A DNA stretch of 64,000 nt from a virus. The notes below the pieces were generated by a model that saw only the letters and a list, made by a program, of their open reading frames with translations, had not been told where the DNA came from and did no database searches. Below are positions 56,591 to 64,000 of this stretch, in pieces. The translations under genes and the position numbers were made by a program. The stretch covers positions 1-64,000 of IMG/VR virus record IMGVR_UViG_3300023202_000137; one strand, given 5' to 3'. Each line of letters begins with the position of its first letter. Positions within the stretch are counted from its first letter, which is position 1.

Positions 56591-57532
56591 CTACGCAACC
56601 AGTACGTTCTGAACCTTCACCGCAGCGGTTTCCTCTGCGAGCTTCGTATCGAAGCGTAGAGTTGCCACGATGATCACAACGCCAGCCGACACGTCCTTGT
56701 CGGTCTCCACGCGGATGTTCCGCCAGATACCAACGTTGACGTTCTTCGGATCTGTCAAGATCATCTCGGTGCTGTCGTTGCCGCCGCCCAAGTCTTCCGG
56801 TGCCACGGGCACTGGGACGATTGGAACACCGGAATACATCACCGGGGCATCTTGCTCCAGGAACCGATCGCCAACCACCGTCGCACGCTCAGCGAGCGCG
56901 TCACGGTAATCGATCTCGGAGTCGATGCTGGTCATGAACCGCATCTGACGCTTGTTGCGTAAGAACTCCGAGGGCATGGTCTTCAGCGAGTCACGGAACA
57001 ACGTCTTGTTGGTCCGTGCGCCCGCTGCATCCACCAGGTTACTGGTGGTCAGCGCACGCACGCCGTCGAACTTGGCAAAGAAGGGGTCGGCAGAGCCGGT
57101 GTCCCCGTTCCAGATCATATCGTCCATGTCGAGCGCGACGCGCTCGGCCATCAACTCCATGACCGTTTGGCGGAAGTTGCCCCGCTCGATGCTGTCTTCC
57201 AGCACCTCGTTGGACAACCGTACCTCTGCCTTGAAGAGTTGGGCATCCAACTCAACCAGAGAGAGGTCCGGCTTACTCCGCTCTGCCTGGGTCAGAGCTA
57301 CGGCCTCGTTTCCAGCTCGGAGAATTCGTCCGGCGAACCGGATCTTCTCGATGAGCTGCTTGGGCGACCGCATCGGAACCACGGTGGCCATCTTCATGAG
57401 CACCGCTTCGTCGATGAGAATGCGCATGAAGCGCTGGGCTTGCGCTGGCTGCAGAAGCCCACCGTCGTTGGTGAGATCCGCCAAGGCCATATCGGCCTTT
57501 TCCAGCAGGGTTCGGTTTGCAGTAACAGTCAT
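56591..57532 (-). CDS. Major capsid protein (HK97 fold, XkdG-like)
   Basis: GGLL.P.QA..F, E.LEDSIE, D......NGD, +LT.P.N...G. Confidence 0.9.
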
Positions 57533-57578: not shown

Positions 57579-58778
57579 TCAGTAGTCCCGCTGCTTGGCG
57601 TTCATGTCGTGGGGCCAAACTACATCCCCAGTGTCTTTCTTCGTCACGCTCTCCCCGGTGGGGGTTTGCGACGATGGAAGACCAACGCCATTCTTCAAGG
57701 ACTCGATCTCCTCGCGTTGCTTCTCAATGGTTTTGTTCTGCTTGGAGACCTTCTTCTTGAGGTCGCGCATCTCATCCAGACTTTCCTGGAGTTGGTCCGC
57801 AACCTTGGTGAGATCGGCCAACCCCGGAATGTCCCGCATGATACGAGCTGCATCCGAAACCGCGCTGTCATCAGGCTGCTCACCTGACCCAACGTTCGGG
57901 CCCTTGGTATTCGGAGCATCTTGGGGGGCTTTCTTTGCTTCGGATACGACTTCTTTCATCGTACCGAAAAGCTCCTTTAGCTCCTGCATCCACTGACCTC
58001 TGGCCTTGCTTGTGCCTTCCCGATTGTCGCTGTTGCCGTCATCGCTTCGCCCTTCAACGAGCGAAGGATCACCGCCACGACTTTCGAGTACGGCGTCGGC
58101 ATGTCGCTCCAGGTGCCGACGCGCTGCAGCCAACTCATCCTCGGGCAAGTCGGATTTCTCCAACGCCTTGAGAGATCGCTTCAACGCCTCAACGTCCAGA
58201 GTTTCATGCTCGTTCGGGTCACCCACATCGGAACTGTGGTGACGGAAGAAACGCGTGGCTGCATCCTCACCCTTCGCAGTCTTCACAACTGCAAAGGCAG
58301 AGTCGGGAAACTTCTTCTGCGCCTTCGCCTTCTTCTTCTTCTTATTCTTCTTGCCTTTGTCTTTGCTGTAGGTGGTGTCATCGTCGTCGTCATCGTCGTC
58401 GTCCTGTTTGACGATGCCTGACTTGGACACCACACGGATGGCATCCCCTATATCCTTGGCTAGTTCCTCGGGAATTGAAGCACTCGTGTCGTCAATCTGT
58501 GCAGACTTCACAATTTCTTGGATGCCCTGCAGGCGACTCAGGGTTTTGCCGACGGCTTCGAGGATGGACTCGCGTGACTCAGTGCTGAGTGCGAGCGCGC
58601 TCTGGGCACTGAAGCTGCCGTCATCGTTCTCAACGATCTCGGGAGCAACGTTGCCGCGCTTTGTGAGAATGAACTTGCGCTTGTTTGCGGCGCGATCTAC
58701 GAGGCTCACCTCTTCGGTTTCGATGTCTTCGAGTCGATGTAGCCCGTCGCCATCGGACCGTGCTTTTCGAATTGTCAC
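57579..58778 (-). CDS. Capsid scaffold-like protein
   Basis: L.D....EVSLVDRAANKRKF N-terminus, FPDSAFA..R...HH domain, C-terminal coiled coil. Confidence 0.65.
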   Translation of the reverse strand: MTIRKARSDGDGLHRLEDIETEEVSLVDRAANKRKFILTKRGNVAPEIVENDDGSFSAQSALALSTESRESILEAVGKTLSRLQGIQEIVKSAQIDDTSASIPEELAKDIGDAIRVVSKSGIVKQDDDDDDDDDTTYSKDKGKKNKKKKKAKAQKKFPDSAFAVVKTAKGEDAATRFFRHHSSDVGDPNEHETLDVEALKRSLKALEKSDLPEDELAAARRHLERHADAVLESRGGDPSLVEGRSDDGNSDNREGTSKARGQWMQELKELFGTMKEVVSEAKKAPQDAPNTKGPNVGSGEQPDDSAVSDAARIMRDIPGLADLTKVADQLQESLDEMRDLKKKVSKQNKTIEKQREEIESLKNGVGLPSSQTPTGESVTKKDTGDVVWPHDMNAKQRDY

Positions 58779-61700
58779 GCAGCCTCCTTAACAGGTTTTC
58801 GAAGTGCGGACCCTCCGATAGAAAACCCTGTGAGATCACCTCGTTTTATCGCTCGCCAGAGTGCGTCGTCAAGAACGCGAACAGCGAGCAGCCACGTGCC
58901 CTTGCGGACCTTCGTTCCGTTCACGTTCATCTCCACTGGGGCAACGTAGCTTTCCAAGATCTTGACCTTGCTGTTGATCACCCCCTTGTGCATCAGTCCG
59001 ATATTACGGAACTTCTCCATGAATTTGTGGGCGCTCTCTCGAATATCCTCTGCGCTGTAGATGTCCTTCTGGGTGTCGGGATCGAGCGGCGCGCCTTCCG
59101 TACCATCGTTTGGCTCCAGCACCACGCCAAGCACGAAGCGTTCGTCGTCGGTAGACTTCTCGGTCTTCAGCAATGGCAGCTTTTTCTGCAGGACCTCGTC
59201 AAACGCCTTCTGATCCTCTGTCTGTGCATTACCCTTGAACACTGCGCAAAGCTCATTTCCACCGAACGTGTAGCTCGCATCGGCTGCTTTGATGATAGCA
59301 CCGTTCGACTCGGGAGACTCATTTGCCCAGACCAGCGCCTCCTGCAGCTCGATATCCGTACGGACCAATTGCGAGGGGGTCAGGTACACCTGCTCTGACT
59401 TCTGCAACAAATGCTCGACCTTGCGGCGTCGCTCGATATATCGCTTCGCCGTCACATTGCCTGCACTGGGGAGGAACAGTGCGTCATGAATACCTAGGTA
59501 AGTGGTCGCGCGATCACCAGAGGTAATAAATCCGTCGAGCACAAAGTCCCCGCCCAGCTTTCGTACCTCGTTCTCGATGTCGCATCGAAGCTCCTCGCGC
59601 TTCTCGGTCTGTCGCTTCAGGATTCCAATCACACCCTTAACCCCAGCGGTCAGGGTGATGGTTCGGAACGATCCCTCTTTGAACTCTCCGGGCTCTCGCT
59701 GACGGAACCGATAGGAATCCTCGGTTTCATCAACCTTGCCCGAAGTGAACTCATGCTCTTTCAACCAGCGTCGAGCATCGGCTTCGCTCTTGAAACGCTT
59801 TTTGTCCAAGATCAGTGTTTGCAGCGTCGTGCTTTGCTTCATGAAGATGCGCACGCGCTCGGCTCGCTTTTGCACGGAGACTTCCAGCCCATCGAGGCGT
59901 GGTTCCACGAGCATCCCACCTTGCAACGTGGTCGATGTCGCAACCTTCTGCAGAAGCTCCTCGCCGCTTGCGTACTCTGAACCCATCATGGGTTCGTAGA
60001 GTGCGAACGGTCGTAGCTGACGACGGTCCAGAGAGGGATCTGTCGAATTCGCCCAGACCTGGAGCCCCTGACGTACCGGGACTTGCTTGATCACGGAGTA
60101 AGATTCGACGGGCTCCAACTCGGCTTTCGCCAATTCGTACTCTGCGAAGCGTTTGGACAACTCCCCTCTGTTCTGGACTTCGTTGATGTGGCCGGGGGCA
60201 AAGCTCGCAGCACAGTCGTTGCACTCGACAACAGACAAAGAGCGACCGCCGTCCATGTGGCTTTTGCCGGTCTTGCGAACATTGAGGCTACCGCAAGGCG
60301 GGCATTCTACATGGCTGAGGTCTTCCCCGCGACGCAAGAAAACCTGCGCCGACGCTCCGCGACTCGACTTGCTAATCTCCTGGGACTCCTCTGCGACGAG
60401 AACCCAATGCCTTGATCCCGGCTCCTCTGCCTTGAGCGTGTAGATGCCTCGCATCTTTCCACGGAACCGCAGTCGGATCTCATCCTCACTTTTGCTCAAG
60501 AACTCCACAAACCCAGAGTCCACGTTTCGTACCCAGCTCTCCATGCTCTTGGTAGCATTGAGAATCTCGCCACCGATTTGCTCGGCAGGCTTTGCCTGAC
60601 CCTCGAACTTCATGAGCTTTGTGCTCTTGAGCGTGCGGCAATCCCCTGCGATGCGCTCGTGCCCCTGCAAGGGGTCGCGGTCTAGCGCCCAGGCTTGCTT
60701 TCCAATCACAAGATGCCACCGCTCTCGCGTGGGGCTGTCACCCTCTGCCGATTTCCATTGCTGCCAAGCAATTCCGTAGGGCTTCGATGTCTCTTTGTCC
60801 TTCTGTGTTCCTGTGTCGAGGTATATTTTATGTAGGACCCGCTGGAAGTCCCCGTTAACGACTTTCACGTTCGAGTCAGTGAAATGTCCACGCTTCACCA
60901 ACTCGTCGCGCATTGCGCGAGCTTCCTCCCCACGAGCCTCCCAGTATCGCAAGGAACTTGGCACGAGTCGTTCGAGCGAAACAGGAATTCCAGAGTACCC
61001 GTCAGGCGGCATGACTCTGGCCTTTGCTGCACGCTCGGTGAGCACGAGTGGGCGAAGGTCCGTCTGCCATTGGGACCACCACCGGGGTTTCTCGGTTTTT
61101 TGCAGCGAGAACAGCAACCGCCCCTGGAACTCTGGGTCGCCCGTAAAAAAATACTCGTGAGCCGATGGTGTCTGCAGGCCGTACTCGACCTTTAGGTCTG
61201 GATCGGTCACCCGAGATAGTACTGCGGGCTCCTCTGCAGTTGCCCCAACCTCACCTGGCTGGACCTTCTCGTGATCGAGATTTAGCCAGGCCATGGGGCT
61301 CTGCCCCTTCGGGGTAGCAGCAACCCCCTCATTCCAATCACGCTCAAAGTAAGAGCCGCTCTTTTGAAATCGTCGAGCAAATCGCCTGGCCTCCCTTACG
61401 TCTTTGACTGTCGGAACCCGACCGGGCTGGTGGTTGTCAATGGTCCACCCCACCGTCACGTCGTCGAGCTGCAACCGGAGGTCGCCGTGCATCCCCTTGC
61501 CTATAAAATGGTACTGATAGACGGCCTGGCGCTTCCCCCTAGACTTCGGAACCAAGCACAGCGCCTCGGCCTTAGTCACAGTGTCGATGCACTGCTGACC
61601 GTGAACCTCAGCGTCACTGGCCTGGAGGATTCGAAACTCTCCATCCCCGGGCCGTACCTCGTGAGACTTGGGCACCAGCCATAGGTCGTACAGGCCCACC

Positions 61701-64000
61701 CTATTTTCAGGACCCCCGATGTCTCCACCCTCCGCTGCGGCGGTTCGACCAAACATTCCCTCGGGAACAAGGGATTCTATGTGAGGGGAAAGACTGGGCC
61801 CGCTCAATAGAAGGTCGATGTCACCTTTGGTGACTCCCCAGTTCGCGAGACCGCCGACAACTGACACCGCATCACGCTCCAGAAGCACGGGTCGTAGCTG
61901 GGTCGTCACTTGATCTAGCTGAATTTCTCCGCTGTGCTCTCGGGAATTCTTTGAGTGATGCGAGCGGCCAAACTCATCCGACGCCAGTCGCATCACTTCA
62001 GACAATGCACCCAGACCGTTGGTAACTCCCTTGCCAAGCGACTTGATAGCGTCCTGTGGAAGTTTCGACAGATGTCCGTGGAGATCTTTGACCACCTGCA
62101 GAAGATTGTGTTCCCCACACTTCGTCAGCTTTCCGGTGTTAACCGCCGAGAGATCTTTCTTCAAAGCCTCCGCGCGTCTGGGGAACGAATCAAGAAACGA
62201 CACGATTGGTTGCTTGCCCTGCATGCCCGACAGCAAAGAGACGCTGCGCTTGCAGAAGCTCGGCGCGAGTACAGCGAGCTGATGTGCTAGCGACTGTGCA
62301 GACTTCAGCGATTCAACTTCATCGTCGTTCAGCTCTATGGCTTCGGGCTCTGGGTCTTTGAACTTCTCTACTTTTGAAACGCGGTACCCCCAAAGAACTT
62401 TGGATTTCGGCCACCGCTTCTCGCGCTCCTCATCAGTCAACCCATGCTCGGTCACCGTCTCGGCAAACTTCCATGTCGAGATCTTCTCTGCGGCCTCAAC
62501 TTCGATGATTCCGTAGTCGGTGCTTCCGTCGGTAACCAGCACCGGGCCTTCGATGCTGTGCTTCTTTGCTTCGAGAAACATCGACACATCACCGTCGATG
62601 ATCTTACGAGCGTGGTCCGGTGTCGTCTCGAATTCCAGAGCTGCTCGTCGTCGCCTTTCATCGCTTTCACGCAACGAGTGTCTTGCCTCTGCACCAGCGT
62701 CGATGAACAAATCGCTGGTGCCGAACCAATTGATCGGACCGTCCACCACCTGGCACTCGCCAACCGACCCGGTCTCCGCTCGAAGATAGAACCGGCAATT
62801 GCCGCACACCCGCTCCCGGTCGGCAGACTGCCCTAGCTCTGGGACATAATCGGCCTCGTCTTGATTGAATTTCCTACCGTTTTCCTCCACCCGCCTGATC
62901 GTCTCGTCGGCCTCCCAGCCACGGCTATTTTGGGGGGCTTGCTTGGTCGCGCGATCTCGATCTTCCTCGATGGCCTTTCGGATGTGCTCGGTTTCGGGCC
63001 CGACGTACACAAGCAACGGACTCGTGTAGCTCTTGGCTAGCTCAACGACCTCGCGATCCATGGTATCGAACATCTCGTCGTAGCCAAGCATCGCCTTTTG
63101 CATGGGGAGTATCTCCCCCTTCTCTAGCGACTTATTTATATGGCTGTTGAGTTTCTGGAAAAACCGTTTGTAGGTTCGGATCGAAAAACGCAGTCGGTCT
63201 TCCCGCTTCAGGAAGTCAAATCCCTTGGCTTGCGCAGAGTCTCGAATTTCCTTTGGAACTTTGTCTTTCGCGAAACCTGATACACCTGGCCAACCGTTCT
63301 TTCGAGTCGTGAGCACTTCGACGCGACCGTAGGCAGGGCCAAAGGCCCACGAGGTAAAATCAAACGAGTCAACGTGCTTCCAGAACTCTGCGTACCGCCA
63401 ACTTCGGCGACCAACACCCAATAGATGCAAGTAGGTGTGGTTGTGTGTCTTGCAGAGATCTGTACGCTTTCGACATACCTCGATAAGCTGGGTGTTCGTT
63501 GCGCTCCGATAGCTTCCCTTGCCTTTTCCCCCTTCAGAGCTTCCCCCTTTGCCGTCCTTCTTTTCTTCTTTGTCTTTGCGCGACAGCCAAAACGAATTGA
63601 CCATGCCACCCCAGGCAACTTTCTTCCCGGTGCGGTAGTATTGCTTCGCGCGGTCCGTGATCTTTGTTGGGATGTGGTCAACATATATGGGGGCAACACC
63701 CAACTTCACTAGGGCTTCAAAGTTTTCGTCGGTCTTCTTTGGGCTCGACGGAACGTCGATGGGCATGAACTCTTCAACAAGTGACTTGTGAGACTTCACA
63801 AAGTCGGCGTACTCTTCGATTGATACCTTTCCCCCATGCACTGCTGCAGAAAACGCACCCGAGTCCAGCAACACACGCACGCCGTTTAGCTCCTTGGGTA
63901 ACCCTTTCTTGAAGTAGTGGTAGGAAACGAGCATCTCTCGGATGCCCTCTTCCTTGAGTATCTGGATCTGATCTTTGGCTACGGCGACGAAATACGAGTG
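58775..64000 (-). CDS. Giant multidomain protein: TGT-like, HiPIP-like, ASCH-like, NTase, 2x LigD-PE-like, Zn ribbon, degenerate ATP-ligase, XkdF prohead protease (5' partial)
   Basis: Frame open from 64000 (HSYFVAV...MLVSY). DSGAFS/HLLG/DFTSW; QYH....HGDLR; EPRLDG; C-terminal VLEP, D.Q.D, AH.FM, MH, ESY, GTW, TGFSIGG. Confidence 0.85.
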   Translation of the reverse strand, partial: HSYFVAVAKDQIQILKEEGIREMLVSYHYFKKGLPKELNGVRVLLDSGAFSAAVHGGKVSIEEYADFVKSHKSLVEEFMPIDVPSSPKKTDENFEALVKLGVAPIYVDHIPTKITDRAKQYYRTGKKVAWGGMVNSFWLSRKDKEEKKDGKGGSSEGGKGKGSYRSATNTQLIEVCRKRTDLCKTHNHTYLHLLGVGRRSWRYAEFWKHVDSFDFTSWAFGPAYGRVEVLTTRKNGWPGVSGFAKDKVPKEIRDSAQAKGFDFLKREDRLRFSIRTYKRFFQKLNSHINKSLEKGEILPMQKAMLGYDEMFDTMDREVVELAKSYTSPLLVYVGPETEHIRKAIEEDRDRATKQAPQNSRGWEADETIRRVEENGRKFNQDEADYVPELGQSADRERVCGNCRFYLRAETGSVGECQVVDGPINWFGTSDLFIDAGAEARHSLRESDERRRRAALEFETTPDHARKIIDGDVSMFLEAKKHSIEGPVLVTDGSTDYGIIEVEAAEKISTWKFAETVTEHGLTDEEREKRWPKSKVLWGYRVSKVEKFKDPEPEAIELNDDEVESLKSAQSLAHQLAVLAPSFCKRSVSLLSGMQGKQPIVSFLDSFPRRAEALKKDLSAVNTGKLTKCGEHNLLQVVKDLHGHLSKLPQDAIKSLGKGVTNGLGALSEVMRLASDEFGRSHHSKNSREHSGEIQLDQVTTQLRPVLLERDAVSVVGGLANWGVTKGDIDLLLSGPSLSPHIESLVPEGMFGRTAAAEGGDIGGPENRVGLYDLWLVPKSHEVRPGDGEFRILQASDAEVHGQQCIDTVTKAEALCLVPKSRGKRQAVYQYHFIGKGMHGDLRLQLDDVTVGWTIDNHQPGRVPTVKDVREARRFARRFQKSGSYFERDWNEGVAATPKGQSPMAWLNLDHEKVQPGEVGATAEEPAVLSRVTDPDLKVEYGLQTPSAHEYFFTGDPEFQGRLLFSLQKTEKPRWWSQWQTDLRPLVLTERAAKARVMPPDGYSGIPVSLERLVPSSLRYWEARGEEARAMRDELVKRGHFTDSNVKVVNGDFQRVLHKIYLDTGTQKDKETSKPYGIAWQQWKSAEGDSPTRERWHLVIGKQAWALDRDPLQGHERIAGDCRTLKSTKLMKFEGQAKPAEQIGGEILNATKSMESWVRNVDSGFVEFLSKSEDEIRLRFRGKMRGIYTLKAEEPGSRHWVLVAEESQEISKSSRGASAQVFLRRGEDLSHVECPPCGSLNVRKTGKSHMDGGRSLSVVECNDCAASFAPGHINEVQNRGELSKRFAEYELAKAELEPVESYSVIKQVPVRQGLQVWANSTDPSLDRRQLRPFALYEPMMGSEYASGEELLQKVATSTTLQGGMLVEPRLDGLEVSVQKRAERVRIFMKQSTTLQTLILDKKRFKSEADARRWLKEHEFTSGKVDETEDSYRFRQREPGEFKEGSFRTITLTAGVKGVIGILKRQTEKREELRCDIENEVRKLGGDFVLDGFITSGDRATTYLGIHDALFLPSAGNVTAKRYIERRRKVEHLLQKSEQVYLTPSQLVRTDIELQEALVWANESPESNGAIIKAADASYTFGGNELCAVFKGNAQTEDQKAFDEVLQKKLPLLKTEKSTDDERFVLGVVLEPNDGTEGAPLDPDTQKDIYSAEDIRESAHKFMEKFRNIGLMHKGVINSKVKILESYVAPVEMNVNGTKVRKGTWLLAVRVLDDALWRAIKRGDLTGFSIGGSALRKPVKEAA

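Follow-up and report, generated by a model that had tools for sequence, protein, structure and literature searches.

A phage polyprotein that ends in an XkdF-type head protease: domain anatomy and possible loading of its cargo into the capsid

The first 64,000 bases of IMG/VR virus record IMGVR_UViG_3300023202_000137 (positions 1-64000, here called the window, of a 90,757-bp record with a CheckV completeness estimate of 87%) carry, on the minus strand, a gene for a polyprotein of 1,758 amino acids (aa). It ends in an XkdF-type prohead serine protease domain, preceded over ~1,600 residues by a series of nucleic-acid domains that fold separately; at least nine domains can be told apart. On balance, the polyprotein is best read as a capsid-targeted polyvalent cargo protein anchored by the phage's own head-maturation protease. 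This reading is supported by the position of the gene in the head module, by the overlap of its stop with the start of a scaffold-like gene, by XkdF being the only head protease recognised and by the existence of more than 100 related fusions that end in XkdF.

The terminal XkdF protease and its place in the head module

The polyprotein gene, its protease domain and the two genes that follow are:

58775-64000 (full open reading frame to 64051 of the record), minus strand: gene for the putative cargo-protease polyprotein; open reading frame identical in an independent Logan contig
58805-59164, minus strand: XkdF-type (Peptidase_S78_2) prohead serine protease domain, aa 1630-1749 (Pfam PF14550, phrog_3017)
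57579-58778, minus strand: gene for a scaffold-like protein, 399 aa; GTG start overlapping the polyprotein stop, conserved N-terminal motif
56591-57532, minus strand: gene for an HK97-fold major capsid protein, 313 aa (phrog_1623, E 1e-93; Pfam Phage_capsid, E 2.3e-13)

An XkdF-type protease at the C terminus, directly upstream of the scaffold and capsid genes, had been proposed in an earlier reading made from the sequence without database searches (the original prediction). Both the protease and its position were borne out. The domain matched Pfam PF14550 with E 2.2e-25 (89.5 bits against a cut-off of 24; profile positions 5-122 of 126), scored 94.5 bits in a genome-wide search and matched phrog_3017 with E 1.9e-34. 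It ends nine residues before the polyprotein stop. D1659, D1663, H1688 and S1744, the last within G-F-S-I-G-G, were invariant in 26 aligned XkdF domains and are candidate catalytic residues, a role assumed from the description of the family. Cleavage of scaffold and capsid protein in the prohead by this domain is suggested by its position upstream of their genes.

No other head protease was recognised in the record, which has no second XkdF and no S78 or ClpP match. A nested internal start yielding free XkdF was considered and rejected, as no start codon with a ribosome-binding site was found after residue 1500. Since XkdF is the sole recognisable head protease and there is no such internal start, the phage must bring either the whole polyprotein or the C-terminal part of it into the procapsid.

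The polyprotein stop and the GTG of the scaffold-like gene overlap as GTGA, five bases past an AAGGAGG site. Judged from this arrangement, the passage from polyprotein to scaffold-like protein is an ordinary coupled restart (translational coupling). A -1 frameshift joining the two proteins was rejected, the scaffold frame having a stop five codons upstream of the GTG and no slippery site. Near its N terminus (scaffold aa 13-41; 58656-58742) the scaffold-like protein carries the motif R-L-x-D-h-x-V-E-E-V-S-L-V-D-R-A-A-N-K-x-x-F-h-h-h-K. The same motif opens the gene after XkdF in 35 diverse related IMG/VR loci, usually with an overlapping start, and was found inside none of 157 polyproteins; in gp33 of Lactococcus phage 28201 the motif, XkdF and scaffold form one protein. 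The motif may be the meeting point of protease and scaffold, serving as a strand for docking or as a site of cleavage.

The family was scanned by searching 1.8 billion representatives with aa 440-1639, which returned 2,328 proteins at E ≤ 1e-3 and 106 at E ≤ 1e-30. For a census, 155 distinct relatives with the phosphoesterase core (50% identity representatives) were taken from the proteins collected so far. XkdF was present in 113 of them; it was the last domain in all 113 and lay ≤ 17 residues from the C terminus in 112. Altogether, more than 100 protein clusters (50% identity) have related cargo ending in XkdF. The cargo N-terminal to XkdF in its homologues, which the original prediction had left to be tabulated, proved diverse: the census relatives have a nucleotidyltransferase (82), a ligase (73), an ASCH domain (37) or a DpdA-like domain (12), and the family also has Dam and C5 methylases, an MBL fold, NUDIX, InPase and an intein as cargo. 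Shorter fusions (Dam-XkdF, InPase-XkdF) occupy the same slot in related IMG/VR loci. Close relatives are all metagenomic, mostly on contigs of ~86-98 kb. The shuffling of cargo among relatives (methylases, MBL, NUDIX, InPase, DpdA-like, ligase) is the signature of polyvalent proteins, and through its InPase-XkdF fusions the family is connected with domains described as virion-packaged by Iyer et al. (PMC5512222).

A second class lacks XkdF. Its members are free-standing viral proteins in which a nucleotidyltransferase is followed by a ligase and then by phosphoesterase units 1 and 2, a permutation of the order seen in the XkdF fusions, and some have extra RNA-ligase, 2H/LigT and pyrimidine-dimer glycosylase domains. 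The 'ATP-dependent DNA ligase' of archaeal virus ANMV-1 is an example from a published genome.

As had been described for the window, one uninterrupted frame runs from 58775 to the window edge. In the full record this stop-free frame continues for 51 nucleotides to an ATG at 64051, and the record also holds the portal and MuF-like genes that the original prediction had proposed to seek beyond the edge. The gene caller placed the start at window position 63934, giving 1,719 aa. That is an unlikely start, probably 39 codons too late, with which the DpdA-like domain would lose a conserved strand at its N terminus. Residues 18-39 are conserved among relatives (Y20 is invariant in the alignment of DpdA-like relatives) and, because they lie upstream of the 1,719-aa start, the ATG at 64051 is favoured.

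Could the fusion be an artefact, either an assembly chimera or a sequencing error joining neighbour genes? The one ground for this is general, the record being a metagenome assembly, and no specific support was found. A Logan assembly of the probable source run gave a single 90,604-bp contig, identical over 58700-64000 and joint-free, and near-identical fragments occur in a second sample of the same study; since both reproduce the stretch, the frame is real. None of the sequencing runs was listed as holding RNA. Furthermore, collinear homologues at 32-45% identity span aa 472-1758, and in 12 relatives a DpdA-like domain likewise precedes this core. A chimera, which the original prediction had named as a possible refutation, is ruled out by the joint-free contig together with the more than 100 related clusters. 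As far as sequence data allow, an artefact is already refuted, and we give it next to no weight.

XkdF domains are often misnamed. CDS0132 of Pseudomonas phage Boevelstad is a plain 150-aa XkdF protease annotated as 'DNA methyltransferase', and the same misnaming occurs in many Pseudomonas and Lactococcus phage records. It is likely to come from the name of PHROG 1530, which includes methylase-XkdF fusions.

Cargo domains and upstream genes

The segments between the N terminus and the protease are:

62795-64000 and beyond, minus strand: TGT/DpdA-like, putative base-exchange domain, aa ~18-419 (phrog_887, phrog_7068)
62738-62821, minus strand: Cys-rich motif resembling HiPIP, aa 411-438 (borderline Pfam; not established)
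62336-62656, minus strand: predicted ASCH (PUA-like) domain, aa 466-572 (structure model, Foldseek and VIA)
61955-62326, minus strand: four-helix bundle, family unassigned, aa 576-699 (pLDDT > 90)
61679-61885, minus strand: putative minimal pol-beta-type nucleotidyltransferase (MNT-like), aa 723-791 (motif and weak fold matches)
60797-61546, minus strand: LigD-phosphoesterase-like unit 1 with a strongly conserved C-terminal extension, aa 836-1085 (active-site motif)
60389-60787, minus strand: LigD-phosphoesterase fold unit 2, aa 1089-1221 (fold; no catalytic His/Asp motif)
60179-60322, minus strand: four-cysteine Zn ribbon, aa 1244-1291 (CPPC...CNDC; weak Pfam Zn-ribbon hits)
59222-60094, minus strand: degenerate ATP-dependent DNA-ligase adenylation domain, aa ~1320-1610 (family profiles)
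59618-59842, minus strand: inserted domain of ~75 aa after ligase motif I, aa ~1404-1478 (no Pfam family)

These limits, derived with tools, are close to the coordinates of the original prediction, which had named a TGT/DpdA-like, a HiPIP-like, an ASCH/PUA-like and a pol-beta-like nucleotidyltransferase domain, two LigD phosphoesterase-like units, a Zn ribbon and an ATP-ligase fold; the four-helix bundle was absent from its list. NCBIfam and PADLOC gave no hits on the whole polyprotein.

The TGT/DpdA-like call stands on phrog_887 (annotated queuine tRNA-ribosyltransferase; E 1.8e-21 over 341 profile positions) and phrog_7068 (E 2.6e-8), but Pfam TGT and DpdA, NCBIfam and PADLOC had no hit for this domain. 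The only solved DNA-guanine transglycosylase, DpdA 7ui4, matched weakly (E 0.47), Atlas matches (0.86-0.88) are leads only, and a word-based search found no short stand-alone relatives. D63-S-G, D99, D125-H126, H209 and D231 are invariant in the 12 relatives that have the domain; by comparison with TGT motifs, D63, D99, D125 and D231 are candidates for the catalytic aspartates of the TIM barrel. With this weaker support, the domain is best called DpdA-like rather than DpdA. A low-complexity loop rich in Lys, Gly and Ser is inserted in it at window ~63500-63580 (aa ~158-185).

The HiPIP-like call was not supported. The segment alone scored 21.9 bits with Pfam HIPIP against a cut-off of 22, only three of the four cysteines of a 4Fe-4S cluster are present, with W-F-G-T-S where the fourth would stand, and modelling gave no confident structure (pLDDT < 50), so that HiPIP identity was rejected.

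The ASCH/PUA-like domain was confirmed by the fold of its model. The segment was modelled with pLDDT > 90, and Foldseek matched it to 2dp9 (E 2.2e-5) and ZmASCH (E 5e-5) with probability 1.0, a value reached for nine ASCH chains at E ≤ 1e-3. In VIA it matched 5guq_A with Z 12.6 and YqfB (9kyf_A) with Z 10.9. None of 35 relatives had a Pfam ASCH hit. The adjoining four-helix bundle gave only generic ferritin/Dps-like bundle matches (VIA Z 8-10).

For the nucleotidyltransferase, the G...D-x-D...D motif supports the original call and the fold matches are weak. G733, D744, D746 and D789 are kept here and are 96-100% conserved in 83 relatives. One stretch of ~70 residues, modelled with pLDDT 70-89, is matched by several MNT structures with VIA Z of only 3.2-4.7 (8xeh_E 4.7, 7ae2_B 4.2, 1no5_B 4.1), and Pfam had no match for the segment. 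The fold evidence is thus weak but consistent. Two family residues, R757 and R760, are replaced in this polyprotein. A BFVD search with the nucleotidyltransferase-phosphoesterase model gave a single significant hit, to an unnamed protein.

Both LigD phosphoesterase-like units were confirmed, unit 1 by motif and unit 2 by fold. Unit 1 is the most conserved block of the family (pLDDT > 94). Its motif Q846-x-H848-x6-H855-x-D857-x-R859 is > 93% conserved in 147 relatives and aligns, with one extra loop residue, with the catalytic strand of the archaeal LigD phosphoesterase 3p43. Unit 2 matched 3p4h_A with VIA Z 14.5 (root-mean-square deviation 2.1 Å; 111 of 118 residues aligned) and 3n9b_A with Z 12.8; Foldseek ranks 1-7 were all LigD phosphoesterases, and its profile matched 3p43 in the PDB with E 3-5e-6. 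It lacks the catalytic Q-x-H...H-x-D-x-R motif, the metal-binding histidines being missing across the family. The second half of unit 1 aligned with unit 2 in hhalign (probability 94%, E 1e-7). With Pfam LigD_N the polyprotein reached only 12.6 bits against a cut-off of 31.1, and only one or two relatives had E < 1e-3. The units are therefore divergent relatives of LigD, not members by the curated model.

The Zn ribbon is carried by its CPPC...CNDC cysteines; its Pfam matches are weak, as are those of its fold (VIA Z 3.6-4.0 to the NrdR and TFIIS ribbons).

Homology of the next domain to ATP-dependent DNA ligases is well founded, but its catalytic residues are lost. Family profiles built from relatives matched solved ATP-dependent DNA ligases with E 1e-18 to 4e-15, and 20 of 35 and 26 of 33 relatives in two sets passed Pfam PF01068. 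The domain of this polyprotein scored 22.8 bits, under the cut-off of 26.2. Compared with 44 active-type relatives it has the substitutions K1385R, R1390E, E1508F, D1514R, E1583N and K1604V. Motif I reads E-P-R-L-D-G here against E-P-K-x-N-G, where K1385 is the adenylation lysine; the five further positions are 86-100% conserved in the 44 relatives, and one loop is also deleted. The nearest relatives (P0004, P0006 and P0020) likewise lack the motif I lysine. Because the adenylation lysine and five other conserved residues are lost, the domain is probably dead, a degenerate homologue that is almost certainly inactive here. No second ligase and no Ku were found in the genome.

The ~75-aa insert after motif I has the core motif D-E-T-E-x-S-[FY]-R-x-R-Q-R-[DE]-P-G-[DE]-F-K-[DE]-G-S-[FL]-R-T-I. 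It is also present in relative P0004 and in small proteins, and twice in tandem in P0132. Pfam found nothing in the insert or in its stand-alone relatives.

Upstream of the polyprotein the minus-strand order is portal, MuF-like, two small genes, SLOG, FolE2-like and molybdoenzyme, followed by the polyprotein, scaffold-like and capsid genes:

Upstream of the polyprotein gene, minus strand: portal (phrog_12)
After the portal gene, minus strand: MuF-like minor head protein
After the MuF-like gene, minus strand: two small genes of unknown type
Within 64011-66473 of the record, minus strand: SLOG cluster-4 protein (PF18306, E 6e-34)
Within 64011-66473 of the record, minus strand: FolE2-like GTP cyclohydrolase (PF02649, E 3.5e-8)
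Within 64011-66473 of the record, minus strand: sulfite-oxidase-type molybdoenzyme, its end overlapping the polyprotein start by 41 nucleotides (PF00174, E 1.8e-29)

Together with the DpdA-like domain, the SLOG, FolE2-like and molybdoenzyme genes could form a base-modification pathway. QueC and QueD had no match in the genome record. Pfam DpdA had none either, which says little as the same profile was silent in every control genome. In 50 related IMG/VR loci no DpdA-like domain, molybdoenzyme, FolE2 or SLOG was found. By the comparisons made here, this member stands out by its DpdA-like head domain, its probably dead ligase, and the FolE2, SLOG and molybdoenzyme genes upstream.

Capsid loading and its alternatives

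Gene position, coupling to the scaffold-like gene and the absence of another protease tip the balance towards capsid loading. The XkdF domain would be built into the scaffold core as the procapsid assembles, perhaps docking on the conserved N-terminal motif of the scaffold-like protein, and the cargo would enter alongside. Once activated, the protease would cut the scaffold and the linkers between cargo domains; scaffold pieces would exit, while the folded cargo domains would be retained alongside the packaged DNA and would probably pass with it into the next host. Candidate cut sites in the linkers (hydrophobic-x-Lys) were judged by eye. Loading, linker cutting and ejection with DNA are proposed by analogy with T4 internal proteins and with polyvalent proteins (PMC5512222). 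Phosphoesterase unit 1, the minimal nucleotidyltransferase and the DpdA/TGT-like domain still look catalytic here. The two domains whose catalytic residues are gone, phosphoesterase unit 2 and the ligase-like domain, are most likely DNA-end or nick-binding modules, or structural modules.

Several points weigh against loading. XkdF might release itself by self-cleavage in the cytoplasm, ahead of assembly. With a passenger of 190 kDa on every copy of the protease, much of the capsid volume would be filled unless copy number is low. Enzymes of this kind need no capsid to be useful, since the nucleotidyltransferase-ligase-phosphoesterase module exists without XkdF, and several catalytically decayed domains fit poorly with a tuned, injected repair kit. 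In addition, all relatives found are metagenomic. The original prediction had the protease carrying its domains into the prohead, where they would act on packaged DNA or be injected as a DNA end-repair and base-exchange kit. The anatomy was right and carriage on the head protease is the best reading, with packaging and injection as what we infer; the end-repair kit is weakened here by the lost ligase residues, by a phosphoesterase unit 2 without catalytic histidines and by the failure of HiPIP.

The self-cleavage objection leads to a serious but improbable alternative, that the cargo is a cytoplasmic array of late enzymes working on replicated phage DNA before or during packaging, from which the protease cuts itself off so that the cargo is not in the virion. 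The DpdA-like domain would then exchange bases and the nucleotidyltransferase and phosphoesterase would process ends, the fusion to XkdF serving only co-expression with the head genes or recruitment to the assembly site. The free-standing module without a capsid anchor is consistent with this. DpdA-type enzymes, like the TGT family in its base exchange, depend on a free base as substrate, and the cytoplasm can supply one; the FolE2-like, SLOG and molybdoenzyme genes directly upstream suggest a cytoplasmic modification pathway. However, co-expression does not need a covalent fusion, and XkdF as the last domain in every one of the 113 relatives that have it, always directly before the scaffold gene, is left unexplained. 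Nor is there any account of why unrelated cargo (methylases, InPase, NUDIX) sits on the same anchor.

The decayed domains point another way, to a polyprotein that is mainly a structural internal head protein with pseudoenzymes kept as DNA-binding filler or as a component of the scaffold core. We consider this unlikely. It would fit a ligase that has substitutions at six conserved positions, catalytic or near-invariant, and has lost a loop, nearest relatives that share the missing motif I lysine, a phosphoesterase unit 2 without metal-binding histidines family-wide and a nucleotidyltransferase without two family-conserved arginines. Yet the motif of phosphoesterase unit 1, the nucleotidyltransferase G...D-x-D...D and all the family-invariant Asp and His residues of the DpdA-like domain are kept, and 44 relatives have the complete ligase motif set. 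That these residues are under selection speaks for catalytic activity of some part of the chain at least.

Going beyond loading as such, the tethered DpdA-like domain might replace bases in the phage genome, either at the capsid or within it, or else in nucleic acid in the newly infected cell, with a base supplied by the FolE2-like, SLOG and molybdoenzyme genes. As QueC and QueD are absent, such virion-linked hypermodification would lie outside the known 7-deazaguanine routes. This extension is speculative and very unlikely.

If the cargo does ride in the capsid, a large unstudied group of phages (more than 100 clusters at 50% identity) would deliver nucleic-acid enzymes with their DNA, and injected counter-defence and genome-care proteins would extend beyond effectors linked to MuF and portal. 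Fusion to XkdF would then be a simple, portable handle for placing a protein in a capsid. At the same time, cargo can decay to pseudoenzymes, and domain names alone overstate the abilities of a given phage. The interest is mainly in a widespread, testable and unstudied proposed way of loading enzymes into capsids.

Comparison with known systems

The internal proteins IPI-III and Alt of phage T4 are loaded by a capsid-targeting sequence, cut by the prohead protease gp21, kept with the DNA and injected against host defences. The likeness to the polyprotein is by proposal: prohead loading, trimming by the protease, staying with the DNA and injection. In T4, cargo and protease are separate and targeting is by a short N-terminal peptide, whereas here the cargo is covalently attached to the protease, which is of the XkdF and not the S77 type.

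Bacterial LigD, the ligase of non-homologous end joining, combines a polymerase, a 3'-phosphoesterase and an ATP-dependent ligase. The core of the polyprotein family likewise has a nucleotide-adding domain, phosphoesterase folds and a ligase in one chain, a resemblance that covers nucleotide addition, 3'-end healing and sealing, and phosphoesterase unit 1 keeps the LigD active-site motif. It differs in having a minimal MNT-like nucleotidyltransferase in place of an archaeo-eukaryotic primase-polymerase and a duplicated phosphoesterase whose second copy is inactive; in this phage, the ligase is without the catalytic lysine and there is no Ku gene.

With the fused protease-scaffold proteins of small siphophages, such as gp33 of Lactococcus phage 28201 (the phrog_3017 type), the polyprotein shares XkdF (40% identity), the scaffold motif and the place upstream of the capsid gene. 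Proteins of the gp33 type are ~350 aa long and free of cargo, with motif, XkdF and scaffold in that order; in the present phage, XkdF comes last in a chain of 1,758 aa and the motif stands at the start of the gene that follows. A search of a literature library for papers linking XkdF to cargo found none. By the evidence of its sequences, the XkdF-cargo design is common in metagenomes and barely described.

The closest published concept is that of the polyvalent proteins of phages and conjugative elements, which combine 2 to 15 unrelated effector domains and which Iyer, Burroughs, Anand, de Souza and Aravind (2017; PMC5512222) predict to be packaged and delivered with DNA. The original prediction had taken such fusions to be described mainly on MuF and portal-region proteins. 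This is incomplete: the main anchors given in PMC5512222 are MuF/portal and zincin-like peptidases, but that paper also states that, in those chains with an assemblin-like head peptidase, this peptidase is invariably C-terminal and probably processes the polyvalent protein during assembly. In a later paper the same group states that XkdF is unrelated to the SH peptidase superfamily. PMC5512222 makes no mention of DNA ligase, LigD, queuine/TGT or ASCH domains, and lists pol-beta nucleotidyltransferases as confined to proteins of conjugative elements. The principle of a C-terminal head peptidase on polyvalent cargo is already anticipated there; this cargo set is not. The polyprotein and its relatives resemble polyvalent proteins in the many unrelated domains per chain, the context of virion genes, the shuffling of domains among relatives and the shared InPase, and differ from those described there in carrying ligase, LigD phosphoesterase-like, TGT-like and ASCH cargo on an XkdF anchor, and in having a putative pol-beta nucleotidyltransferase outside conjugative elements.

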